Below, in pieces: positions 1,959-31,219 of a DNA stretch of 32,000 nucleotides. This stretch comes from Candidatus Hermodarchaeota archaeon. GTDB taxonomy: Archaea > Asgardarchaeota > Heimdallarchaeia > Hodarchaeales > Hodarchaeaceae. The position numbers were made by a program, and so were the translations under genes. The notes beneath the pieces were generated by a model. That model did no database searches, was not told the DNA's origin, and saw only the letters and a list, made by a program, of their open reading frames with translations. The stretch is from positions 30,923-62,922 of the forward strand of contig JBHLKY010000023.1 in the NCBI GenBank assembly GCA_048886185.1, read 5' to 3'. The stretch's first letter is position 1; every line of letters begins with the position of its first letter.

Positions 1959-2519
1959 GTGTTATTATTGAGTTCTTCTTTGTCAACTTTAGGGGACTAT
2001 TACAGAATTATATTTCTTGGGAGCGAAAAAGTAGGGAAAACTTCAATTGTTCACTGGATTCTTGATCTTCCCCATCAAGAGGACTATCTTCCTACAATTG
2101 GAGTAAGATTCTATAATCTGGACTCGTTCCTGAATAATAAGCAGTATTTTCTACAGCTTTGCGACATTTCAGGTAACAAAATCTATTCTAATCTACTCCC
2201 ATTGTTAATAAAGACAGTAGCTGTCGCTATACTAGTTTTTGATTATAAGAATCAAGATTCTATGGTGGAAGCTCAAACGCTATTTAAGAAGGTACGGGAA
2301 TATCTTTCACCAGATCAAATAGTAGTTGTGGGCAATAAATCTGAAAATAAGAAAAAAATCATTCCTAAAATATTGGATTCTTGGACTAAAAAGAATAATG
2401 TAAAAATAATTTCTGTATCTGTTCATAAGAATATAGGAAAATATGTACTTCTACAGAACATTAATAGAATAATTCTAGGGTTTTCTGGTGATCAGGTAAA
2501 AGAAATAGATAAATCATAA
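1959..2519 (+). CDS. Divergent Rab/Ras-like small GTPase
   Basis: G1 GSEKVGKT, G2 YLPTIG, G3 CDISGN, G4 NKSE, G5 SVSV. Begins 8 bp after the upstream gene. Confidence 0.85.
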   Translation: MLLLSSSLSTLGDYYRIIFLGSEKVGKTSIVHWILDLPHQEDYLPTIGVRFYNLDSFLNNKQYFLQLCDISGNKIYSNLLPLLIKTVAVAILVFDYKNQDSMVEAQTLFKKVREYLSPDQIVVVGNKSENKKKIIPKILDSWTKKNNVKIISVSVHKNIGKYVLLQNINRIILGFSGDQVKEIDKS

Positions 2520-3107: not shown

Positions 3108-5993
3108 ATGGTCGAGAACGATTACAACCCTGTAGTTTGGGTTAGTTTAGCTTCTGTTTCAGGTCTGAGCTTGATCAGTTTGGGGCAGCCTGGTCTAAGA
3201 ACTGACCTTGATGAGCAAGTATATACTGGTGGGTTGACTGCCGTTCAAGCTATGCTAGGTGGGGAAATTGGGGGCGATACTGAACGATTTGTAGGTGGGA
3301 GTCACAGTAATAGAACAGGTAGGTTTCTAGTTAAAAACGATAGAGGCGAGCTTGTTGGTCAATTCTTGTTAATTTCTCCCAAAAATCTTAACGTTGCTCC
3401 AGAATTGGTCGATTTTTATGAACAGCTTGTTACAATCTTTGCCGAGGATACAATTCAGACTGAAGTTTATGAACGAGTCCAAAGAGAATTTAGAGCCTTG
3501 GGAGTGAATGATGTCTTAGATATCTTTTTTGATAGTATAAAGAAGGCAAGAAAGCGTAAATCGCTCCCCATGAATAAGGACATGTTCTTTTCAGCTCTCA
3601 CCGAAGCAACATTCAAATCTATTAATGATTATGAGTATTCAACGACCTTAGTTAAAATATCTGAATATAAAGGGAAATATCACGATCTTCATTTAAAAGT
3701 TCAGAACGAAAGGAATGATCTAATAACAGAATTATCGCAGGATATGTTAGAATTCATGACAAGTGAGCATCCACATGCTTTAGTGACATTCCCTAAGATT
3801 GATTCATTAAGAAAAGATTTTCTAAAATATATGCAATCAGAAATTAATAGTATTGAAAAACAAAATAAGGTAGAAGAAGCACTTGAAGAAATAATCGAAG
3901 ATTTCAAGAAAAATGACTTAAATGGCGTTCTCGCGGACTTTGCTCTTAGTGAGGTTACTAAAGTTAATCTTTATGCACGTCTAGAAGATGAAATTTTTAA
4001 AAAGTATCGCCGGGAATTTCCACTGCTTTTTCTTGTTGATCCCAAAATAAATGGTTTTTTAAGCGCTATAGAAAAACTCACGACTAAGATAAATGAAGAA
4101 TATGATGTAGCAGGAACTTTATCACGTATTGGTCATGATATGTTAGTGGGTCATGAAAAAGAGGAAAAATTGGTTATTCCTTTTATTCGACAATTTTGTG
4201 ATCAATTTGCTACAGGATTAACCCACGCAGCATGGAAATATATGCAAATTATCTTTAGAATCGTAACAATGGAGACTGAAATCGATGTGACGGATGTTCT
4301 TTCGGCATTAGAAGGACAAATCCCTGATTCTCACTTTTCCACAGTCCAACGGATGATTACCAAATATAAGATCACAAAGCTTGATCCCCTTTCCTTTTCA
4401 GTAAAAAAAGCAACTGATATATTACCCTTTTATAGAGCATTATTAGCTTCAATAGGTTATGGTGTTAATTTTCTTATTTTTCAAGTTACTTTGGGGGAAG
4501 AAAACCCAGATAATTATCTCAATCATACTATAAAGAATTTATATGACTTCAGTACTCAGATTATACCCACTTTTTCAATATTTTCAATCTATTCTCATTT
4601 AGAAAAAATACAACCACGTTTAGAGTTTAATATAGGATATCCTGAGTTTAAAAATGAAATTGATATTACAACTTTAGATGTCCAAACATTAACACAAGCA
4701 TTCATAGAAGCAACCAATGATTATCTCCAAAAAGAACATCAACAAATAGAAAGCCGCTTAGACGAGTTTCAAAAGGCCTTTGAAGAGCAAATAAATGACA
4801 TTCACAAATTTTTGTCACGGAAACCAATCGACATCTCTAAAGGTTATTCTACTGATCTTAAAGAGTTAAAATTACTTTCATTTTCAACAAAACTTGTTGA
4901 AAGCATTGAATCCATTTTACAAAAGACTCAAGAAGAATACAGGGGTATTATTGAAAGAATATATCCTGATTTAGATAAAGCAAAAGAGGCTGCTTTGGAA
5001 TTTGTCAACAAACAAATTGATGAAAAGAAGTTAGGATCAATTCTATCAAATCGTGGATTTCTTGAAAAAACTCGAGATAATTTTCAAAAATTCATACGTA
5101 AAACTCGAGAGTCAATAGAAAAGAGGTATAGTGAGCTTCCTTCAAAAGTTGAAAAGGATTTTAATGGATTTCAGAAAGAATTCACAAAAATATTTTCTCG
5201 TGAATGCCCTTTTCTCAATATTGACAGGAAAGCATTTTCAAAAGGGGATAAGAACTATCTCCAGGATCCCTCTTCCATCATTAATAAAATTCAAGGATCA
5301 ATCAAGCAAATTATTACTAAAGATCCATTTATCTCTTCTGAGAATCTAGGTCAATATTATTTTTATTCCAAAAACATGTCTTTACCCACGAATCTTCAGT
5401 TTGCAATTTCAGATTCATTAGTTCACAATAAGAAATCATATCCTTTTCTAAAAGAAGCGATAGAAAACCTGAAATCGAATCCAAACCAAGACATTTTCAA
5501 AAGTTATGCAGAAGTTTTAGAAGATCAAACAAAAGGATTAATGTCAAGAATTTTCCAAGAAGCAGGAAGAATCATAGGAAAAGATTACTTAAGATCTGAT
5601 CCTGACATTTTTTTCATAGAGAGAGATAAAAAACCTATCCCCACTCTTGAAATGGGAGTTTTATCGTGTGTTGACGCTATGAATTCTCTCCGAGATTTAT
5701 TAGGTTTAAGAATTGCCGTTGAGTCGGAAAAACGCGAAGAGATAACACTATTCCATGTTTCCGCTACAATCCCAGATTTTGGATGTGATTATGACGATCT
5801 GAAAAAAGTTTGGAAGAAAAAGGAATGGACTCTAAGAAAGGTACTACTTCTCTTGAGTTGGCGCTCTATTCTAAAATCGAATGCGTTTTATCTTAACTTA
5901 CTCCAATATTCCAGCGGATTCTACTCAACTCGAGTAAAAGAGTCACTTGAGGAAATTTTGGAAGAAATTGGGAGAGCAATAATCTCTAGTTGA
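3108..5993 (+). CDS. Large hypothetical protein: N-terminal longin/roadblock-like domain followed by long alpha-helical/coiled-coil region
   Basis: 961-aa ORF with a GGAG SD-like site upstream. The N-terminal ~130 aa (VWVSLASVSGLSLISL...DEQVYTGGLTAVQAMLGGEIGG...GRFLV...GQFLLIS...helix) follow a beta-beta-alpha-beta-beta-beta-alpha pattern. The remainder is E/K/L/I-rich and helical. Confidence 0.55.
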   Translation: MVENDYNPVVWVSLASVSGLSLISLGQPGLRTDLDEQVYTGGLTAVQAMLGGEIGGDTERFVGGSHSNRTGRFLVKNDRGELVGQFLLISPKNLNVAPELVDFYEQLVTIFAEDTIQTEVYERVQREFRALGVNDVLDIFFDSIKKARKRKSLPMNKDMFFSALTEATFKSINDYEYSTTLVKISEYKGKYHDLHLKVQNERNDLITELSQDMLEFMTSEHPHALVTFPKIDSLRKDFLKYMQSEINSIEKQNKVEEALEEIIEDFKKNDLNGVLADFALSEVTKVNLYARLEDEIFKKYRREFPLLFLVDPKINGFLSAIEKLTTKINEEYDVAGTLSRIGHDMLVGHEKEEKLVIPFIRQFCDQFATGLTHAAWKYMQIIFRIVTMETEIDVTDVLSALEGQIPDSHFSTVQRMITKYKITKLDPLSFSVKKATDILPFYRALLASIGYGVNFLIFQVTLGEENPDNYLNHTIKNLYDFSTQIIPTFSIFSIYSHLEKIQPRLEFNIGYPEFKNEIDITTLDVQTLTQAFIEATNDYLQKEHQQIESRLDEFQKAFEEQINDIHKFLSRKPIDISKGYSTDLKELKLLSFSTKLVESIESILQKTQEEYRGIIERIYPDLDKAKEAALEFVNKQIDEKKLGSILSNRGFLEKTRDNFQKFIRKTRESIEKRYSELPSKVEKDFNGFQKEFTKIFSRECPFLNIDRKAFSKGDKNYLQDPSSIINKIQGSIKQIITKDPFISSENLGQYYFYSKNMSLPTNLQFAISDSLVHNKKSYPFLKEAIENLKSNPNQDIFKSYAEVLEDQTKGLMSRIFQEAGRIIGKDYLRSDPDIFFIERDKKPIPTLEMGVLSCVDAMNSLRDLLGLRIAVESEKREEITLFHVSATIPDFGCDYDDLKKVWKKKEWTLRKVLLLLSWRSILKSNAFYLNLLQYSSGFYSTRVKESLEEILEEIGRAIISS

Positions 5994-7387: not shown

Positions 7388-8704
7388 TTAGTTAACCTCC
7401 TCATCATGGTCTCCTGAGTCATAGACTGGTGGATCCTCAATCGTTGGTATTTCAATTGTAGGTATCTTAAGGTACTCCTCTGGAGTTGGTACTTCTTTAA
7501 ACTCCTCCTCTTCCTTTTGCTTTTTTTCCTTCTCTTTCTTCTTCTTAGGTGTTTTTGGGAGTAGAGGAAGTTCGGTAACAACTCTGTTGGTTAATCTCAT
7601 GTAATAATTAGAAAAGAAATAGATTATCACACGATCTCCCAATTTCATTTTTTCTTCTGGTGATAAGAGTTCCTCCCCGCGACGAATGAGAAGAACCTTC
7701 TGTCTAATAAGATCTGAACTCATAGCTTTTCCTGTAGAACCTACGTAGGTTCTCGGGACATCTATCTCGACAGTTGGAGGAAAATCGAAATCCATACTCA
7801 GAGAATGAACTAGGCCCTGAATAGTAGCATCTAGATCTTCGATAATGATGAGGTTTTCGTCTTGGACAAGATCGCTAAATACAAAAGCAGGAGCATATTG
7901 GGAAAGGAGTATAATCTCAACATCAGGTCTCACTCGTCTGATATTTGTCAAAATATTCTGGTTTAATTCAATGCTTTCAGTAAGAATCATGATACGACTG
8001 GCGTTCTTGAAGCCAATAATATCATATAAATTTGGTTTTTCAAATTCCAACTGATTCTCAACCACGTATTTGTCAATTCCCTGTAAACTACGGATCCAGA
8101 GCAGATCAACATCAGCAATTAATGATACCCTTTCTTCATAACCATATTGAAAAATCATCTCAAACAGAAATTGCTCTGCAGGTCTTGAAGTTCCAAAAAC
8201 ATAGGTAATATCCTTCCTTGTATTCACCTTGTCTCGATACTTGGCTATTGGGGATTTAATCATTGCTCGGATGATTATAGTAAGAGTACCGATAATACCA
8301 GCGCCATATCGTACCGTTGTCTCGTTAAAAATCCCTGTTATCAAGGTATGGTGCAATCCAGCTTCAGAGCCAGGCTCTCCAAAATTAGATCCTCCCCACG
8401 CGTTCCAAGGGTCTCCAGGTATTAACCCGAGGGCAAGAGGAACACCCCAAATTACTAGAACAAGAAGAAGCGCAATAAAAAGACCGATCCAGAAGAAAAG
8501 GAGAAATAAATCTTGAAGGGGGATATAATATTTTATTTCTCGTAGGACAATTCGAATGACTAGCTTTGCATTTGCTCGGGCTGCTGTTAAATTAAACTTT
8601 AATTGACGCATATTGTCTCCGAATGTCCTTTTCTGACTTTTTACTCTTTCTTTCTTCTTTTTCTTATCTTTTTTCTCTTTCTTTAGTTCAGAGGATTGAT
8701 TCAA
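7388..8704 (-). CDS. Membrane protein with about two TM segments plus RCK (TrkA-N and TrkA-C-like) domains; MthK-like layout
   Basis: Hydrophobic LFLLFFWIGLFIALLLVLVIWGVPLALG, then a loop, then GAGIIGTLTIIIRAMI, then TYVFGTSRPAEQF...LYDIIGFKNASRIMIL and KLGDRVIIY. Lys-rich N- and C-tails. An AAGGTGA SD-like site precedes the TTG start. Confidence 0.7.
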   Translation of the reverse strand: MNQSSELKKEKKDKKKKKERVKSQKRTFGDNMRQLKFNLTAARANAKLVIRIVLREIKYYIPLQDLFLLFFWIGLFIALLLVLVIWGVPLALGLIPGDPWNAWGGSNFGEPGSEAGLHHTLITGIFNETTVRYGAGIIGTLTIIIRAMIKSPIAKYRDKVNTRKDITYVFGTSRPAEQFLFEMIFQYGYEERVSLIADVDLLWIRSLQGIDKYVVENQLEFEKPNLYDIIGFKNASRIMILTESIELNQNILTNIRRVRPDVEIILLSQYAPAFVFSDLVQDENLIIIEDLDATIQGLVHSLSMDFDFPPTVEIDVPRTYVGSTGKAMSSDLIRQKVLLIRRGEELLSPEEKMKLGDRVIIYFFSNYYMRLTNRVVTELPLLPKTPKKKKEKEKKQKEEEEFKEVPTPEEYLKIPTIEIPTIEDPPVYDSGDHDEEVN

Positions 8705-10983: not shown

Positions 10984-12963
10984 TTGTCTGGAAATTATGA
11001 TGCAAGTAGTATACAGGTTCTAGAAGGCTTAGAGGCCGTTCGTCGTCGTCCAGCGATGTATATCGGTAGTATTGATGAAAATGGGCTTCTTCATTTAGTG
11101 TGGGAAATCGTGGATAACTCGATTGATGAAGCAATGGCTGGTGCGTGTGACCAGATCAAAGTCATCCTAGGTCAAACAGAACATGGTTTTGAATCTGTTA
11201 CTGTTCAGGATAATGGTCGTGGGATTCCCACGGAACCACACCCCGATTATAACATGTCATCCTTGGAATTAGTCACAACTCGTCTTCATTCTGGTGGGAA
11301 GTTCGATCACACGTCATACAAAGTCAGTGGTGGATTACATGGAGTCGGAATTGCTGTAGTAAATGCACTATCTAGTTGGATGCAAGTTAAAGTTAGAAGA
11401 AATAACGGACCGGTGCTAATGCAAGAGTATGTTAGGGGAGAAACAATCTCTCATGGATTAATCAAATTAAAAGAAAGATGGAAAGATCATAGTGGGACAC
11501 ATATATCATTTATTCCTGATCGTGAAATCTTCGAGACTGTTCACTTCGATATTTTACCTATCCGGAATCGGCTTCGTGAACTGGCGTTTCTGAATAAAGG
11601 GCTCGTTATTACTTTAATTGATAATCGAAAGCCATCAAGCGAAACAATTGTCAAGTTAGATGAGTCTTTTGAAAAAGAAAAGGAAAATACTTGGACCTTC
11701 CATTATGATGGTGGGATCCAAGCCTATGTTGAACAATTAGGAAGAAATCGAATACATGATGACATTCCTTATTTTGATGAAACTATTGAAACCACCCAAG
11801 TAGAAGTATCGTTAGCTTATGATAGATCTGAACGTGAATTAGTTTACACTTTTACAAATAACATCAATACCCGACATGGAGGGACTCATTTATCAGGATT
11901 TAAATCAGGTTTGACCAGAGCAATCAATGCCTATGTCCTGAAAAATGAACATTTAGTTAGGAATACACATTTGCGAAAAAATCTAAAGGAAAAAAGGTCA
12001 ATTTTTTCAGGAAATGACGTTCGTGAGGGATTAATTGCTGTTGTTTCTGTAAAAGTCATGAATCCACAGTTTGAGGGGCAAACGAAGAGTAAATTAGGTA
12101 ATAGTGAAGTCAAGGGAGTCGTAGAACGCTGTAGCTATGAAAATATATTGAAATTCCTTGAGGAACATCCCACCAGTGCCAAAGAAATAATCGATAAATG
12201 TGAACAAGCCGCTACAATTCGGATGAAATACAGGCAAATTCGTGAAGCTGTTAAGAAAACTCAAGCGAAAGGTACAGGAAAACTTGTCGATTGTTCGGAA
12301 TCTGATCCAGCAAAACGGGAACTGTTCTTGGTAGAAGGTGATTCAGCAGGGGGTAGTGCTATCGAAGGGAGATGGAGTGAATTCCAAGCCATCCTGCCAT
12401 TAAGGGGGAAAGTGATAAATGTTGAAAAAGCACGTTTGGAAAAAGCAATGAGAAACAAGGAAATACTTGAAATCATTCGCTCTATTGGTGCAGGATATCG
12501 GGAAACCTTTGAAATCGAAAAAGTTCGGTATCACAAAGTAATATTGCTCATGGATGCCGATATTGATGGTCATCATATTGTTTGTTTACTCCTAACGTTT
12601 TTCTTCCGCTATATGCCCGAACTGATTGATGAGGGTTATTTGTATGTAGCACAACCTCCTCTTTATCGAATTAAAAAAGGTAATAAGGAGCAATATGTCC
12701 TTACTGATCAGGAAAGAGATGATATTGTTAACGAATGGGGAGGAAATGTTGAAATTAGTCGTTTTAAGGGATTGGGGGAAATGAATCCAATACAGCTAAG
12801 AGAAACTGTCATGGATCCTTCAAAACGTACTCTTCTTCAAGTCACACGAGAAAATATCATTGAAGCTGAACGAATCTTTGTAACTTTGATGGGTGATGAA
12901 GTGAGACCCAGGCGAGAATTTATCCAAACGCATGCATTAGAGGTAGAAAATTTAGATATTTAG
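10984..12963 (+). CDS. gyrB: DNA gyrase subunit B
   Basis: EAVRRRPAMYIG, EIVDNSIDE, DNGRGIP, HSGGKF, GGLHGVG, FEGQTK, EGDSAGG, PLRGK, DADIDG, RFKGLGEMN. Short (659 aa) form without the E. coli-type insert. Confidence 0.97.
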   Translation: MSGNYDASSIQVLEGLEAVRRRPAMYIGSIDENGLLHLVWEIVDNSIDEAMAGACDQIKVILGQTEHGFESVTVQDNGRGIPTEPHPDYNMSSLELVTTRLHSGGKFDHTSYKVSGGLHGVGIAVVNALSSWMQVKVRRNNGPVLMQEYVRGETISHGLIKLKERWKDHSGTHISFIPDREIFETVHFDILPIRNRLRELAFLNKGLVITLIDNRKPSSETIVKLDESFEKEKENTWTFHYDGGIQAYVEQLGRNRIHDDIPYFDETIETTQVEVSLAYDRSERELVYTFTNNINTRHGGTHLSGFKSGLTRAINAYVLKNEHLVRNTHLRKNLKEKRSIFSGNDVREGLIAVVSVKVMNPQFEGQTKSKLGNSEVKGVVERCSYENILKFLEEHPTSAKEIIDKCEQAATIRMKYRQIREAVKKTQAKGTGKLVDCSESDPAKRELFLVEGDSAGGSAIEGRWSEFQAILPLRGKVINVEKARLEKAMRNKEILEIIRSIGAGYRETFEIEKVRYHKVILLMDADIDGHHIVCLLLTFFFRYMPELIDEGYLYVAQPPLYRIKKGNKEQYVLTDQERDDIVNEWGGNVEISRFKGLGEMNPIQLRETVMDPSKRTLLQVTRENIIEAERIFVTLMGDEVRPRREFIQTHALEVENLDI

Positions 12964-12978
12964 ACATCAGAGGTAGAA

Positions 12979-15477
12979 TTGAAGATGAGTAGTAGTATTA
13001 AACTGACTCCTATCGAACTAACTATGTCAAAGAGCTATTTAGAATATTCAATGTCGGTTATTACTAGTAGAGCCTTGCCACATGTACGAGATGGACTTAA
13101 ACCTGTCCATAGACGAATTTTGTGGTCAATGCACAATTTAGGGTTAGTCCATAACAGACCACCACGGAAATGTGCTCGCACAATAGGTGAGACCCATGCA
13201 AAATACCATCCCCATGGAGAAGCAGCAATATATGATGCCTTAGTAAGGATGGCACAAGAATTTTCTTTTCGCTACCCTCTGATCCTGGGCCAGGGTAACT
13301 TTGGGAGTATGGACGGCCAACCCCCAGCAGCTCAACGCTATACAGAAGCTCGTATGGCAAAAATCACTAGTGAAATTCTAAAAGATATTGAAAAAGATAC
13401 CGTTGATTTTGTAGACAACTTTGATGGATTAGACAAAGAACCTATCATTCTTCCAGCTAGAATTCCTAATCTTCTAATCAATGGAGTAATGGGAATCGCT
13501 GTTGGAATGGCAACATCTATGCCTCCTCATAACCTAACTGAAGTATTAAATGGAGTTATTGCCACAATTAAAAATCCTGAAATTAGTACAGAACAGTTAA
13601 TGAAACATATTCCTGGTCCTGATTTCCCCACTGGTGGGGTCATTTTTGGTACCTCAGGTATTAAGCGGGCTTACCACACTGGTAGTGGAAATGTTATTTT
13701 ACGAGCGAAGTATGAAATTGTTGAGAAGAAAAATAAAACTCAGATTGTCATCACAGAGGTACCTTTTCTTGTTAAACGTCAAGATACGATCGAACACAGA
13801 GGATTAGTTGATATTATTGAACAGATGAAGGAATCTGGCAAGCTTCCAGAAATTGGTTCAATAAAAAATGAGTCTAATATTATTCATGGCACTAGAATTG
13901 TGATCAATTTAAAAAAAACTGCTAATTTGGATATTGTGCTAAATCGGCTGTTTAAGTATACTCCAATGCAAATTTCATACTCTATTAAGAATATGGTGCT
14001 TGTAGATGCTCGTGTGGGTACCGAAACTCGATTTCGGCCTAAGAAATTGAATCTGAAGGGATTGATTAACCAGTTTATTGATCATCGATATGAAATAGTA
14101 GTTCGTCGGACAGAATATGAGCTGAAGAAAGCTCAAGAACGAGCACATATTCTCGAAGGAAGGAAAATAGTAGTAGAAAATCTAGATGAAATAATTTCAA
14201 TTATAAGAGCATCCGAGACGGCAGCAGAGGCCCAATCTTCATTAATATCACGTTTTTCTCTTTCAGAGATTCAAGCTAAAGATATTCTCTCACTTCCTTT
14301 GAGGAGTTTAACTCGTTTTGATCGTCAAAAAATAATTAAAGAATATGAGGATGTTTTAAAAGCCATTAAAGATTATAAAGAGATCTTAGATAGTCGTGAT
14401 CGTATTTTTGATATTATTATTGAAGAAATAGAGGAAATTAAAAGTAAATACGGTGATGAACGTCGTACAACGATTCTAAGGGATGATTCTGAAGGATTTC
14501 AAGATTGGACTGGTAAAACTGAGGAAGATTTTATATCAGAGGAAGATATTGTTATTACACTAACTCAAAATGGCTACATTAAATCCATTCCAGCTGAAAC
14601 CTATAAAGCTCAACATCGTGGAGGAAAAGGAATAAAATCAATGGAAATTGGGAAAGATGATTTTTTGAAAGAGATGATTGTTGCTTCTACTCACGATACT
14701 ATCCTCTTTTTCACAGTCAATGGGAAAGTATATAGCGTTCGTGGATACCAAATTCCACTTTCCAAACAACGTGTTACAAAAGGAATTAATATTGTCAATC
14801 TAATTCGAAAAGAAACTGATGATGAGATTGAAACCATGATTTCAGTATCTAATTTCGATGAAGAACACTTTTTGGTATTGGCTACTAAAAACGGGCTGAT
14901 CAAAAAAACCACACTAACTGATTACGCAAACATACGAACTACTGGGATTATAGCGATTCAACTTAGAGATCAAGATATGATTGTTGGTGTTAAAGTTACT
15001 GATGGAACTAAGGATATCGTGCTAGCTACACAGAAAGGGAAAGCAATACGTTTTCCTGAGAACCAAGTACGCGCTGTTGGGAGAAGTAGTATTGGAGTCT
15101 TAGGGATTCGACTAAGAGAGGATGATTTTGTTGTCGATATGGCGATTGTTGACGAAAAAAAGACATTATTAACAGTATGCGCGAATGGATTTGGAAAACG
15201 AACAAAGTTCAATCAATACCGAATTACTCGTCGAAACGGAAAAGGTGTGATTAACATCAAAACCAAAAAAGGAAACGGTGACGTCATTGCGGTACGAACT
15301 GTAGCGGAGACCGATTACCTCATGCTAGTTGCTAGTGATGGGAAATTAATACAAATACCAATAAGAGATATTAGAACAATTGGTAGATCCACGTCTGGGG
15401 TGACTTTGATGAGGCTAGACAAACAGAAAGGAGTCACAATTACCTCTCTTGCTATTTTAATAGAGGATAAATCTTAA
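12979..15477 (+). CDS. gyrA: DNA gyrase subunit A
   Basis: RDGLKPVHRR, YHPHG, catalytic AQRY(121)TEAR (13339-13341), GIAVGMAT, GyrA-box QHRGGKG and beta-pinwheel blade repeats. Start is TTG 12979 or ATG 12985. Confidence 0.97.
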   Translation: MKMSSSIKLTPIELTMSKSYLEYSMSVITSRALPHVRDGLKPVHRRILWSMHNLGLVHNRPPRKCARTIGETHAKYHPHGEAAIYDALVRMAQEFSFRYPLILGQGNFGSMDGQPPAAQRYTEARMAKITSEILKDIEKDTVDFVDNFDGLDKEPIILPARIPNLLINGVMGIAVGMATSMPPHNLTEVLNGVIATIKNPEISTEQLMKHIPGPDFPTGGVIFGTSGIKRAYHTGSGNVILRAKYEIVEKKNKTQIVITEVPFLVKRQDTIEHRGLVDIIEQMKESGKLPEIGSIKNESNIIHGTRIVINLKKTANLDIVLNRLFKYTPMQISYSIKNMVLVDARVGTETRFRPKKLNLKGLINQFIDHRYEIVVRRTEYELKKAQERAHILEGRKIVVENLDEIISIIRASETAAEAQSSLISRFSLSEIQAKDILSLPLRSLTRFDRQKIIKEYEDVLKAIKDYKEILDSRDRIFDIIIEEIEEIKSKYGDERRTTILRDDSEGFQDWTGKTEEDFISEEDIVITLTQNGYIKSIPAETYKAQHRGGKGIKSMEIGKDDFLKEMIVASTHDTILFFTVNGKVYSVRGYQIPLSKQRVTKGINIVNLIRKETDDEIETMISVSNFDEEHFLVLATKNGLIKKTTLTDYANIRTTGIIAIQLRDQDMIVGVKVTDGTKDIVLATQKGKAIRFPENQVRAVGRSSIGVLGIRLREDDFVVDMAIVDEKKTLLTVCANGFGKRTKFNQYRITRRNGKGVINIKTKKGNGDVIAVRTVAETDYLMLVASDGKLIQIPIRDIRTIGRSTSGVTLMRLDKQKGVTITSLAILIEDKS

Positions 15478-15493
15478 TAGGTGGGAAAATATC

Positions 15494-18400
15494 ATGACTA
15501 AGGCTGCGAAAACAACTAAAAAAGAAAATATTACTGAAGAGAAAGTCGTGCGAAGATCTGCAGCTGATTTTTTTCAAGATAATAAAGCAATTGCTGGTTT
15601 TGACAATACCATGCGCGTTGTGTTTACCAGTGTGCGAGAATTAGTTGAAAATGGACTTGATGCAGCTGAAAGAATTGGAAATTTACCAGAATTACACATA
15701 ACAATACAACGGTTGGAAAAAGAAGATATCGCTAGATTATTAAGCATTAGTAAGTTTGATTCAGCAGAAAAAATTGATTTCATTCGATTAACTGTCCGTG
15801 ATAATGGGAGTGGTGTTCAAAGCGAATTTGTACCCCCTTTATTCGGGAGGGTTTTAACAGGTAGTAACTATGGAGCCCGACAATCTCGTGGTCGTTTTGG
15901 CCTTGGTGCGAAGATGGTGTTATTAAATGCCATGTCATCTGTTGACCTCCCTCTTGTCATAAAATCAAAGTATATCAATGAAGACTTTACTAGCTATTAT
16001 GAGCTAATGATAAATTTAGCCGAGAATGAGCCGATAATATTAACTCAAAGAGAAATCCCTCAAGAAACTGCTGAAGCAATCCCCAATTCGGGCACAGAAG
16101 TAAATGTAACTTTTACTGGTTCTTGGAACCTTGCCTCTCGTTGGATTCGTGAATATTTTTCCCAATTAAGTTTGATTACCCCGTATTCTAGCTTTTACGT
16201 TCAATACCCTGATATTGATGAACCAATAGAAATGAAAAGAGTCGTCGAGGAGATGCCTGCATATCCACAGATCGCAAAGGTGCATCCTTGGGGAACTGAC
16301 ATTACTCAATTTAAGCGTGAGCTAGCAGTAACGAGAAGTAAAACCATGGAAACCTTTCTCCAAGATCACTTCCAAGGCATTGGGCCTAAAACAGCTCAGG
16401 AATTCTTAGATTTTGTTAAAATAGATCAAAATAAATCTCCCAACGATCTTTCTGCAAGCGATATTAGGCGAATAATTCACGAAGGGTTTGTGATGCCCGA
16501 TTCTGACCCTAAAAAGCGTCGTGAACAAAAATACTTTCCATTCAGGAGACCAAGTGGCGATTCTCTCTCACCACTAGGTTCAGAATTATTAGCAAAAGGG
16601 ATTGAGAAAGAACTGAATCCACAATTTGTCCGCTCAGCTGCAGGAGAAATTTCAGCTTATTCTGGGCATCCTTTCATCGTCGAGGTAGCCCTAGCTTATG
16701 GAGGGCCAATACTTTCCAGCGAATCTGGCAATCCGAAAATTTATCGATTTGCAAATCGAATTCCGTTATTATTTGGAGCAGGAAATGACATAATCACGAA
16801 ATGTGTTCAAAAAATGAATTGGAAAGCTTACAAAATCAATATCAATAAATCACCTATCGCTATTGTTGTTTCAGTTGTTTCCTCAAAAATTCCTTTTCCA
16901 GAAACTAGTAAAGAGTATATTGCTGATGTTGACGAGCTTCGAAAGGAAATAATGCGAGTATTGAAAAAATTAGCTAGAGGATTAAGTCAACACTTAGGAC
17001 GAGCTGAACGAGAGCGTCGGGAGAAACAAAGACAATCCCGATTTGAGAGCGCAGCTCCCAAAGTACTTCAGAATCTGTCAAAAATATTGGAAGTTACCCA
17101 AACTCCTTTCCTTTTACAGTCTTCTGAGGAGATATCAAAACTAGAAAAAGCCCTTGCTTCAGCAGTTCCCAGATTAGTTCGACGTACTTTTCCTCCCAGT
17201 CCTTTGATCTCGTCTATTGGGGAGTGGTTACCAATGGAGACTTATGTAACTCTTGTTGAACATAATATTCAAACAATCTACCAATTTTTACGAGCTCCTG
17301 TAGCAGAATTAAGTGATATTACAGGCCTAGCAGAAAATAGAATAGCAGAAATCAAACGTGCAACAGTTACTAGTCAAGAAAGGTCAAATTATGCCCCTTC
17401 TATGCGAGAATTCGAATTATTTTCCAAATCTATTGAAGATGATTATAGTAAATATCGTGATTCATTACGTATTCACAAAGCATTGAATAAACGGTGGATT
17501 GTATCTTCTTTGGATTTTTTTGCAACCCCGATACCCCAATTGCGCTTGGTTGAAAGTTTTCCTGAGAAACTTCTATATGAGGCAAAACAAAGAGCAATCG
17601 ATAAACATCTAGCGAATAATCCTGTAAGCGATTTCAGTTTACAATTACTTCCATGGATAACTGAAGATTTGGAGAAAAATCTTAAGTCAGCTAAAATTCA
17701 CAATATTCTAGATTATATAATTGCATTTCCAGAAAAGCTGGCACAAATACCAAACTTATCAATCCGATTACTTGAATCTGTAAAAAAGGAAATCAAAGAT
17801 GGGATTACTCAAGGGTATATAGACCCTGAGAAAGTAATTGGAGCCGCTACATTTGATTGGATGGATTATCGTGTCACCCCACGTTTACGAGGGAGAAATA
17901 TATCAAAAATAAGAGAATTTATGGAAACTCCAAATGAAAAATTAGCAGATATATCGGAACTTTCTGAAAATTTAATTCTCCGTTCAAAAAAGATTCATAA
18001 TGAAGTACTAGTACAATTAAATGAGGAAAAACCCTTCTTAAAAGTGACAGCTCTCCAAGAATCAATGATATCAGACCTGGAACGGCTGGAAATTAATGGC
18101 TTCATTGATTTTCTCTTAGCTGAAGAAAAGGATCTACAAATAATTCGTGACTTAATATCACACCTTATCTCATTGAAACAGGATGAAGTCCAAGAACAGA
18201 TTGAACAAGAACATGAAATCTTTCCTACGAAGGCTGCTTGGTGGCTTGATTCAGAACTAGAGGTCCAGTTAAAGGATTTAGGTATTCAAACAGTGTACGA
18301 TTTTGTACGTTGTCCTTCTTCAAGATTATTACAGTTAAAAAAGTTAGACCCAAAAATACTAGAAACTATTAAAAAAACATATGGAACTCCTATTCCCCTT

Positions 18401-30547: not shown

Positions 30548-31219
30548 TTAATCCCAGAGAAAATGATCAAGAAACGAAGAGGCAATGTTTACTCCAAGTT
30601 CACCAAAAAGGGAACCTAAACTATTACTCGAAGTACCGCCGATCCTCAAGACCTTATCACCCTCCACGATAGATATACCATCCTGAGGATCAACCTGAAC
30701 TAGGTGATGCTCCCCTTTACGAACTGAAATTTGTTTTTTATGAATTAAAACGAATTTTTTTTCTTCTGCAACAAGAAGAAAGTTTTTGCGACCGAATATG
30801 ACATACTCATGATCTTTATCATCAAAAGAAATGTTCATATGGGGATCAGACTCTTCGATCCAATATTTTAATTTTGCAATCATCTCTTTAGCTTGGTCTT
30901 TAATATTTTGGGCTTCCTGTTCGCTAAGAGTGCTCTGATGAAGAAAATTTTTCAATTCTGAGATAGAAAGGCCAAAAATGACCAAATTAGAACCAGTAAA
31001 CGTTGTGGTGTTCCCAACAGCACCTTGAGACGTGTGAACAATTGCATCAACAACAGCTTCAATCTGACCTAAGATCACAATTCCTTTAGTTGAAGTGTCA
31101 GTGGTAACTTCGATTATTTTTGTTGGTTGAAACAGGGTAATTTTATAAAAAGGTGAGTAGAGAATTTCTGGTTTTCCCTGCCACTCAAAAATCTCGTCCT
31201 CAAGTTGAATTGATCTCAT
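30548..31219 (-). CDS. Hypothetical protein, beta-rich, probably co-transcribed with the upstream HTH gene
   Basis: 223-aa ORF starting 5 bp after the stop of the ArsR-like gene. No family recognised. Confidence 0.65.
   Translation of the reverse strand: MRSIQLEDEIFEWQGKPEILYSPFYKITLFQPTKIIEVTTDTSTKGIVILGQIEAVVDAIVHTSQGAVGNTTTFTGSNLVIFGLSISELKNFLHQSTLSEQEAQNIKDQAKEMIAKLKYWIEESDPHMNISFDDKDHEYVIFGRKNFLLVAEEKKFVLIHKKQISVRKGEHHLVQVDPQDGISIVEGDKVLRIGGTSSNSLGSLFGELGVNIASSFLDHFLWD

Follow-up and report, generated by a model that had tools for sequence, protein, structure and literature searches.

A topoisomerase VI B subunit extended by a long arm of helix-hairpin-helix-type modules in Hodarchaeales archaea

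The DNA investigated here is a window of 32,000 nucleotides from the assembly GCA_048886185.1 of Candidatus Hermodarchaeota archaeon, a member of the Hodarchaeales within the Heimdallarchaeia of the Asgard archaea, and corresponds to positions 30,923 to 62,922 of contig JBHLKY010000023.1; unless another locus is named, positions are those of this window. A single ATG-start open reading frame (ORF) on the plus strand, located at 15494-22438 with the stop codon included, encodes a B subunit of DNA topoisomerase VI (Topo VI), Top6B, of 2,314 amino acids (aa), which is four times the normal size of this protein. The product is 100% identical to cluster P0004 and has 80 long homologs. The Top6B core is followed by a further ~1,750 aa, and the protein is almost certainly a fusion of this core with an arm of about 28 modules of the helix-hairpin-helix (HhH) type. 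The partner subunit Top6A, with its 5Y-CAP and Toprim domains, is encoded beside top6B.

The canonical core comprises aa 1-513 (15494..17032, plus strand) and contains the GHKL ATPase, an H2TH-like region (aa ~256-329) and the transducer (aa 353-513). The transducer end and a charged helical linker follow at aa 514-576 (17033..17221, plus strand). The NCBIfam model for Top6B (NF003218/PRK04184) matched aa 10-538 with 446.2 bits against a cut-off of 274, while TIGR01052 reached 354.3 bits, under its cut-off of 380.7. Pfam matches in the core were obtained with HATPase_c and with Topo-VIb_trans (PF09239), the latter at aa 353-513 with an E-value of 2.8e-53 over profile positions 1-159 of 159. 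The core also aligned with residues 4-502 of the Top6B of S. shibatae (2zbk_B) with an E-value of 5.8e-84, the alignment reaching aa 548. Compared with 2zbk_B, the ATP-binding motifs are retained, i.e. the N-box ELVENGLDA, the G1 box DNGSG and the G2 box GRFGLGAK. The transducer segment SKEYIAD aligned with GKESIAE of S. shibatae, and the lysine of this segment, which we take to be the switch lysine, is retained. Judged by its sequence, the Top6B core is complete, spans aa 1 to ~545 and continues with no stop into the arm; its isoelectric point (pI) is 9.0. Top6A being encoded beside it, the core is expected to be part of a working type IIB enzyme, in which the two subunits should form a normal ATP-dependent A2B2 complex. 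The canonical Top6B proteins of S. shibatae (2zbk_B, 530 aa) and M. mazei (2q2e_B, 621 aa) show the same GHKL-H2TH-transducer organisation from end to end, likewise with an adjacent Top6A. The transducer is, however, followed by a short helix in S. shibatae and by an Ig-like C-terminal domain (CTD) of ~100 aa in M. mazei, whereas the protein described here has ~1,750 aa of helical HhH-type repeats.

The arm extends over aa 577-2292 (17222..22369, plus strand) and is composed of units of ~60 aa, each a four-helix HhH-type module resembling the N-terminal domain (NTD) of RAD51. Comparison of the tail with Pfam yielded RAD51D_N with an E-value of 2.5e-29 and 101.6 bits (cut-off 27.3), HHH_5 with 8.5e-12 and 45.8 bits (cut-off 27) and RNA_pol_A_CTD with 1.3e-5; PF26169 (HHH_XRCC3_RpoA) was also among the precomputed matches. 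When the tail was compared with all PDB sequences by phmmer at E <= 1, only the NTDs of RAD51L3 and RAD51 were found. At E <= 0.01 a self-iterated hidden Markov model (HMM) detected 24 units in the region of aa 577-2292 and none in 20 shuffled tails, the distance between unit starts being 50-68 aa. Three stretches missed by the HMM (aa 621-719, 1065-1144 and 1924-2070) were all unit-like in sequence, and the last of them showed the same four-helix pattern in the second AlphaFold2 (AF2) model described below. Spacing and predicted structure together suggest a total of about 28 units. The consensus of the unit is L-P-x-I-x2-K-x-L-x-K-L-x3-G-I-x-T-I-x-D-F-L-x2-P-x-E-E-L-x2-I-L-G-L-S-x3-I-x2-I-K. 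Autocorrelation of the tail sequence gave peaks near 64, 117-128 and 368-376 aa, which were weak because the linker lengths vary. The mean pairwise protein identity between units was 22%, and in the DNA of the gene neither a tandem array nor any repeat above 35 nt was present, which excludes that an assembly repeat was collapsed or expanded. A preliminary description of this DNA, made from the letters alone, had proposed an intact Top6B core running without a stop into 25-28 units that resemble the HhH domain of RadA/Rad51, start at 17222 and are too divergent at the DNA level to be a collapsed repeat. The profile, motif and identity data agree with it on each of these points, and unit 1 proved to start exactly at position 17222, with aa 577.

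AF2 models were obtained for aa 1115-2314 of the arm, with aa 577-1114 of the tail lying outside them. The model of aa 1195-1640, for which 26 orthologs were used, had a pLDDT of 79 and a pTM of 0.60 and contained seven consecutive four-helix units. In the model of aa 1115-2314 the pLDDT was 85-90 over aa ~1454-1994 and lower toward both ends. The high model confidence across many units points to an arm that is a continuous packed all-helical repeat rather than beads on a string. An Ig-like beta fold of the M. mazei CTD type was not seen in the AF2 models of aa 1115-2314, which were all-helical but for one beta hairpin. This short predicted hairpin is located in unit 16 at aa ~1669-1676 (nt ~20498-20521), in the region of IFLVKEGDKKIRID, and is the sole non-helical element of the modelled arm.

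Superposition of a single unit with VIA-align ranked the NTD of a RAD51 paralog (8faz_C) first, with Z 8.9 and a root mean square deviation of 1.5 Å over 56 aa; the NTD of RAD51C (8gj9_B) gave Z 7.7 and 2.0 Å over 62 of 64 aa, both Z values falling in a range that can be common for helical models. The next ranks were taken by other HhH domains, the alphaCTD of RNA polymerase, NusA AR2 and SAM domains. Because such Z values can be common among helical models, the profile match carries most weight for the fold. By profile and structure, the units have the RAD51/RadA N-terminal (HhH)2/SAM-like fold. The NTDs of RAD51/RadA and their paralogs (8faz_C, 9q25_D and 8gj9_B) are thus the best single-unit matches (Z 8.9-7.7, 1.5-2.0 Å, 56-62 aa), but the recombinases carry one copy in front of their ATPase, whereas here ~28 tandem copies stand behind the ATPase of a topoisomerase. 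Searches of the PDB by Foldseek with both AF2 models gave no match at E <= 0.001.

Long ORFs of this kind could arise by mis-assembly, by formation of a chimera or by read-through of two genes, and one related metagenome bin does have the gene as three ORFs of 611, 617 and 1,033 aa. The three pieces sum to about the same length, so that this broken copy looks frameshifted within one gene. Logan contigs from three runs, which may be the source samples, were made with a different assembler and covered the entire 7.1 kb without indels and with 0-2 differences. A contig of ~93% identity from an estuary metagenome of another study crossed the junction of core and arm, where the preliminary description had suggested a check of read coverage. 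No RNA run was listed among the public runs that contain the sequence, from which nothing follows for expression. Full-length orthologs were found in 26 cases (2,279-2,330 aa), all of them with a protein divergence of 20% or more, with a mean identity of 84% in the core and 65% in the arm and almost no indels in 1,750 aa. The 80 long homologs (1,300-3,900 aa) had the same domain set, and closed single-contig genomes held ORFs of 2,312-4,305 aa. The DNA, moreover, was without repeats able to mislead an assembler. The contig, ortholog and repeat data have already refuted an artefact, the probability of which is practically nil. In the strain of ~93% identity, 27 of the listed differences were synonymous and 11 were not, and within the arm 18 were synonymous and 10 were not; the ratio is a rough one, as 38 of the 287 differences are listed. 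The gene is real and intact and is under purifying selection.

When aa 1195-1640 were compared with 1.84 billion cluster representatives, just 34 matches were obtained, and all 34 were giant Top6Bs or fragments of them that aligned at the corresponding position. Since the matches of the tail are few and position-specific and the orthologs are almost without indels, the units are ancient and individually conserved and were not amplified recently. On these sequence comparisons, the modules are old, distinct from each other and positionally orthologous between species. Two proteins that had been considered as natural variants were rejected. P0209 (3,547 aa, no core) is not a tail-only form, its gene being cut by a contig end, and P0086 (611 aa) is not a tail-less form but the leading piece of a gene that frameshifts have split into three.

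Upstream of top6B lie gyrB (10984-12963, plus strand) and gyrA (12979-15477, plus strand), the latter ending 16 nt before top6B. Downstream, top6A (22455-23864, plus strand; 469 aa) starts 16 nt after top6B and was identified by PF21180 (2e-63) and PF04406 (3.3e-17). The order gyrB-gyrA-top6B-top6A is thus head to tail on the same strand with gaps of 15-16 nt, and because of this arrangement all four type II topoisomerase subunit genes look like one operon. The adjacency of gyrA and top6B was seen in at least six genomes of the same genus and was not repeated in a closed genome of family f3 (G026). The host genome (4.84 Mb, 75 contigs, 96% complete) contained no second Top6B, and the nearest homologs carry the names Hodarchaeales or Heimdallarchaeota. 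Compared with standard Top6A, the Top6A of the window has ~85-100 extra N-terminal residues (22455-22790, aa 1 to ~112). The length of Top6A was 469-476 aa next to a giant Top6B, 409-413 aa next to a Top6B of ~1,110 aa and 382-390 aa next to an ordinary Top6B; it rises with the class of Top6B, and the N-terminal extension therefore tracks the arm. Genes for small GTPases of the Ras/Roc family at 1959-2519 (plus strand) and 24639-25190 (minus strand) border the topoisomerase cluster and are typical Asgard content. An ORF of 961 aa (3108-5993, plus strand) and one of 438 aa (7388-8704, minus strand) gave no Pfam match at E <= 1e-4.

A survey of Top6B length, which the preliminary description had put forward as a check, was carried out on 301 genomes of the phylum. 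In families f1-f6, which belong to the same class as the host, a single Top6B of ~2,300-4,300 aa was found wherever the gene was complete, closed genomes included, and gyrase was found in 63 of the 67 genomes. The giant form is the standard Top6B of this whole archaeal class, and the public sequences go by the plain annotation "DNA topoisomerase VI subunit B". Family f7 of the same class has two full Topo VI sets, with B subunits of the ordinary ~500 aa and of ~1,110 aa, and gyrase was not found in its 10 genomes. Family f20 of another class has an HhH-tailed Top6B of 2,290 aa and an ordinary one, and gyrase was not found in its 4 genomes. Three gyrase-positive genomes of f14/f27 have a Top6B of ~1,000-1,150 aa. 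In the one protein of this group scanned in full, that of locus L015, no HhH units were detected; this divergent Top6B of 1,013 aa (L015 1912-4950, minus strand; genome G145, f14) has its transducer at aa 623-782 and, by its sequence, appears to be enlarged by N-terminal or internal insertions and not by an HhH tail. Most other families have a Top6B of 500-680 aa. In this sample the tailed enzyme always occurred beside another type II enzyme, either gyrase or a second Topo VI. This co-occurrence is a lead and not a test, because the lineages are related and several Top6B copies are common in Asgard genomes anyway.

In a tree of the cores the tailed Top6Bs formed one clade (99/99), within which the ~1,110-aa forms (100/100) were sister to the giants (100/99). 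The ~1,110-aa proteins of the gyrase-less family f7 (P0100-P0126) therefore resemble the giants in their position on the tree and in having a C-terminal HhH extension. Their extension, however, is of ~550 aa, is basic (pI 9.0-9.4), contains five hairpins of the form glycine-hydrophobic-glycine (GhG), gives canonical HHH_5, IMS_HHH and Cdd1 matches and belongs to an enzyme that stands beside a second, ordinary Topo VI. This basic sister clade with canonical HhH motifs was counted in favour of the arm having originated from DNA-binding HhH modules.

The protein ends in a conserved C-terminal peptide, GNIRLRRKSDVVGRLDSYMTKE (22370..22435, plus strand), in which a basic patch is followed by the motif LDSYM; the terminal consensus across the clade is RLRRKxDVxGxLDSYM. 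The peptide resembles the PCNA-interacting protein (PIP) box Q-x-x-[LIVM]-x-x-[FY]-[FYLM], but the Gln is missing from its own terminus V-G-R-L-D-S-Y-M. Among the relatives examined for the terminal motif, which include P0039, P0042, P0048, P0054, P0211, P0215 and P0220, distant subclades have the termini QKSLNAF, QKSLDEY and QKTLDAML, giving the motif [Q]-x-x-[LIV]-[DN]-x-[FY]. The short form [LIV][DN]x[FY] was present within the final 60 aa in 41 of 85 relatives, many being close orthologs from a single clade and some being fragments, whereas ~15% would be expected judging by the remainder of the tails. Many distant giants have long C-terminal tails rich in Lys, Ser and Thr which resemble histone H1. 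A complex prediction of the C-terminal 70 aa with the core of the PCNA of the same genome scored 0.31 against a mark of 0.32, with controls at 0.00, and speaks neither for nor against an interaction. The single PCNA of the genome (L018 1453-2352, contig C9; a 299-aa ORF) has a strongly acidic end of ~30 aa, EVEEEEEDTEDAYADEDWDEEEDEDWDEDDE, and acidic tails rich in Asp, Glu and Trp are also found in its Hodarchaeales homologs.

At the position of the second hairpin a single Gly was present in 39% of the unit copies. Units 1, 4, 7, 8, 9, 20 and 24 kept this Gly in 16-26 of the 26 orthologs, and units 7, 9 and 24 are also net basic. Unit 7 (aa 1021-1065; 18554..18688, plus strand), with the hairpin Gly in 22 of 26 orthologs, and unit 9 (aa 1204-1249; 19103..19240, plus strand), with the Gly in all 26, are candidate DNA-competent modules. 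The last unit, unit 24 (aa 2250-2292; 22241..22369, plus strand), is the most basic one and its hairpin Gly is invariant. The differentiation of the units is conserved position by position across the orthologs. The tails of 13 giant proteins had a pI of 5.0-6.9 in 11 cases and of 8.1-8.6 in two, with 0-3 GhG hairpins each.

The reading we favour, at middling confidence, is that of a rigid helical-repeat scaffold in which a few modules at fixed places are DNA-competent and the C-terminal element is basic or serves for docking; such an arm would specialise Topo VI for work alongside gyrase. The arm would leave the core at the transducer end, beside Top6A and the DNA gate, and would serve as a built-in accessory scaffold. 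Most modules would be structural and have lost the DNA-binding features of HhH domains, while a fixed subset, i.e. the seven Gly-keeping units, together with the basic C-terminal end, could contact DNA. A partner might be bound through the conserved C-terminal peptide. In this way the arm might keep the enzyme attached to flanking DNA, to a second duplex or to components of the chromatin or the replisome, and Topo VI would be specialised, most plausibly as a decatenase, where gyrase handles supercoiling.

Several observations weigh against this reading. The arm is acidic, with 228 Lys and Arg residues against 267 Asp and Glu (net -39, pI 5.4), and the 1,754-aa tail contains no GhG hairpin. Asp or Glu occupied the hairpin position in 35% of the unit copies, and units 3, 12, 13, 14, 17 and 22 are fixed as acidic there. 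The closest structural relatives include HhH folds that bind proteins, such as RAD51-paralog NTDs and the acidic repeats of NusA, and the scarcity of indels fits a precise architecture better than a simple avidity for DNA. The link with gyrase is not strict, since tailed enzymes occur in the absence of gyrase in f7 and f20, and the three gyrase-positive genomes examined from f14/f27 have a Top6B of ~1,000-1,150 aa, the scanned one being without HhH units; these families are related, and the counts of co-occurrence are not independent.

The main rival is a purely protein-binding arm, a scaffold or spacer whose HhH-derived modules would no longer bind nucleic acids, like NusA AR1/AR2 and some RAD51-paralog NTDs. 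We regard this as possible but on the unlikely side, and its more specific forms, in which the partners would be histones or other chromatin proteins, parts of the replisome or SMC-like factors, or in which the arm is a rigid ruler setting the distance between enzyme and anchor, are viewed in the same tentative way. The acidic tail without GhG speaks for it, as do the Asp/Glu hairpins, which occur in roughly one unit in three and are fixed by position, the ranking of RAD51B/C/D NTDs and NusA AR2-type domains as best structural matches and the nearly indel-free alignment of the 26 orthologs. The conserved terminal peptide is typical of a short docking motif, and the extra N-terminal domain of Top6A is present only where Top6B is giant. 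However, the tail of the sister clade is basic and has canonical HhH motifs, the hairpin Gly is retained in seven units, of which three are basic, and many relatives have Lys-rich ends like those of DNA binders.

A further possibility is that the whole array acts as a non-specific DNA-wrapping or processivity arm, perhaps with apurinic/apyrimidinic (AP) or deoxyribose phosphate (dRP) lyase sites, as in topoisomerase V (Topo V) of Methanopyrus kandleri, a type IC enzyme with 12 tandem (HhH)2 domains (PMC9489208, PMC4838376). The layout of the two proteins is alike, a topoisomerase being followed C-terminally by a long array of HhH-fold domains, and the units described here descend from HhH modules. 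Foldseek ranked Topo V first or second across both AF2 models (E 0.02-0.3), with 8df7_A at the top for the 1,200-aa model (E 0.023) and Topo V among the top ranks for the 446-aa model. None of these matches was significant, the TM values being <= 0.1, and the ranking reflects the shared layout only. The catalytic domains are unrelated (type IC as opposed to type IIB), the array described here has more than twice as many units, and phmmer at E <= 1 did not retrieve Topo V when the tail was compared with PDB sequences. Of the 12 repeats of Topo V, only 3-6 and 9 touch the DNA backbone, and the repeats line a positively charged track around the DNA (PMC9489208), whereas the arm of Top6B is acidic, is without GhG and has many acidic hairpins. 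Nothing pointed to lyase lysines, and no sites could be aligned. A wrapping arm of the Topo V type is thus quite unlikely. The preliminary description, which had proposed a DNA-binding or wrapping arm, may hold for the Gly-keeping units, three of them being basic, but is not supported for the array as a whole; its suggestion of a repair lyase went too far.

A narrower form of the favoured scaffold reading, considered rather unlikely, is a rigid tether of defined length. Its C-terminal peptide would sit on the sliding clamp or on another anchor of the replisome or chromatin, while a few DNA-competent modules would capture a second duplex, making Topo VI a decatenase coupled to the replisome or to chromatin. 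If this were true, the arm would be a functional analogue of the additional subunits found in plant Topo VI and of the eukaryotic Spo11/TopoVIB-like meiotic complex. BIN4 and RHL1, the partners of plant Topo VI, and the CTD of GyrA are accessory elements that tune the DNA engagement of a type II enzyme. They are, however, separate subunits or a beta-pinwheel and have no kinship to the arm in sequence or fold.

Lineage-specific C-terminal extensions of Top6B in gyrase-encoding Asgard archaea were reported by Villain et al. 2022 (PMC9348778), who modelled them as a globular domain and proposed co-evolution of extension and gyrase; neither an HhH array nor proteins this large were described there. 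Brinkmeier et al. 2022 list a CTD for Asgard TopoVIB and likewise describe no HhH array and no protein of this size. An HhH array on Top6B was not found in PMC9348778, PMC9665070, PMC11302465, PMC12680538 (supplements aside), PMC11894792, PMC12395588 or one bioRxiv preprint, and the literature searched, including 2024 reviews and a 2025 paper on the Asgard replisome, holds no account of it. The sequences are public and C-terminal extensions of Top6B in gyrase-encoding Asgard archaea are already known; of the HhH-array architecture, for which the preliminary description had likewise named no precedent among Top6B proteins, we found no description in the literature searched.

With 1,700-3,700 extra residues on the B subunit of a whole class, the arm is one of the biggest known additions to a topoisomerase of any kind. 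Plant Topo VI and the Spo11/TopoVIB-like machinery, by which meiotic recombination is initiated, both go back to archaeal Topo VI, and no known archaea are more closely related to eukaryotes than the Heimdallarchaeia. The finding is of high relevance to the fields of both topoisomerases and eukaryogenesis. It provides a natural test of what becomes of long HhH-derived arrays after the loss of canonical DNA-binding features. The co-occurrence of the arm with gyrase or a second Topo VI also offers a handle on the division of labour between two archaeal type II enzymes, a question raised by Villain et al. 2022.

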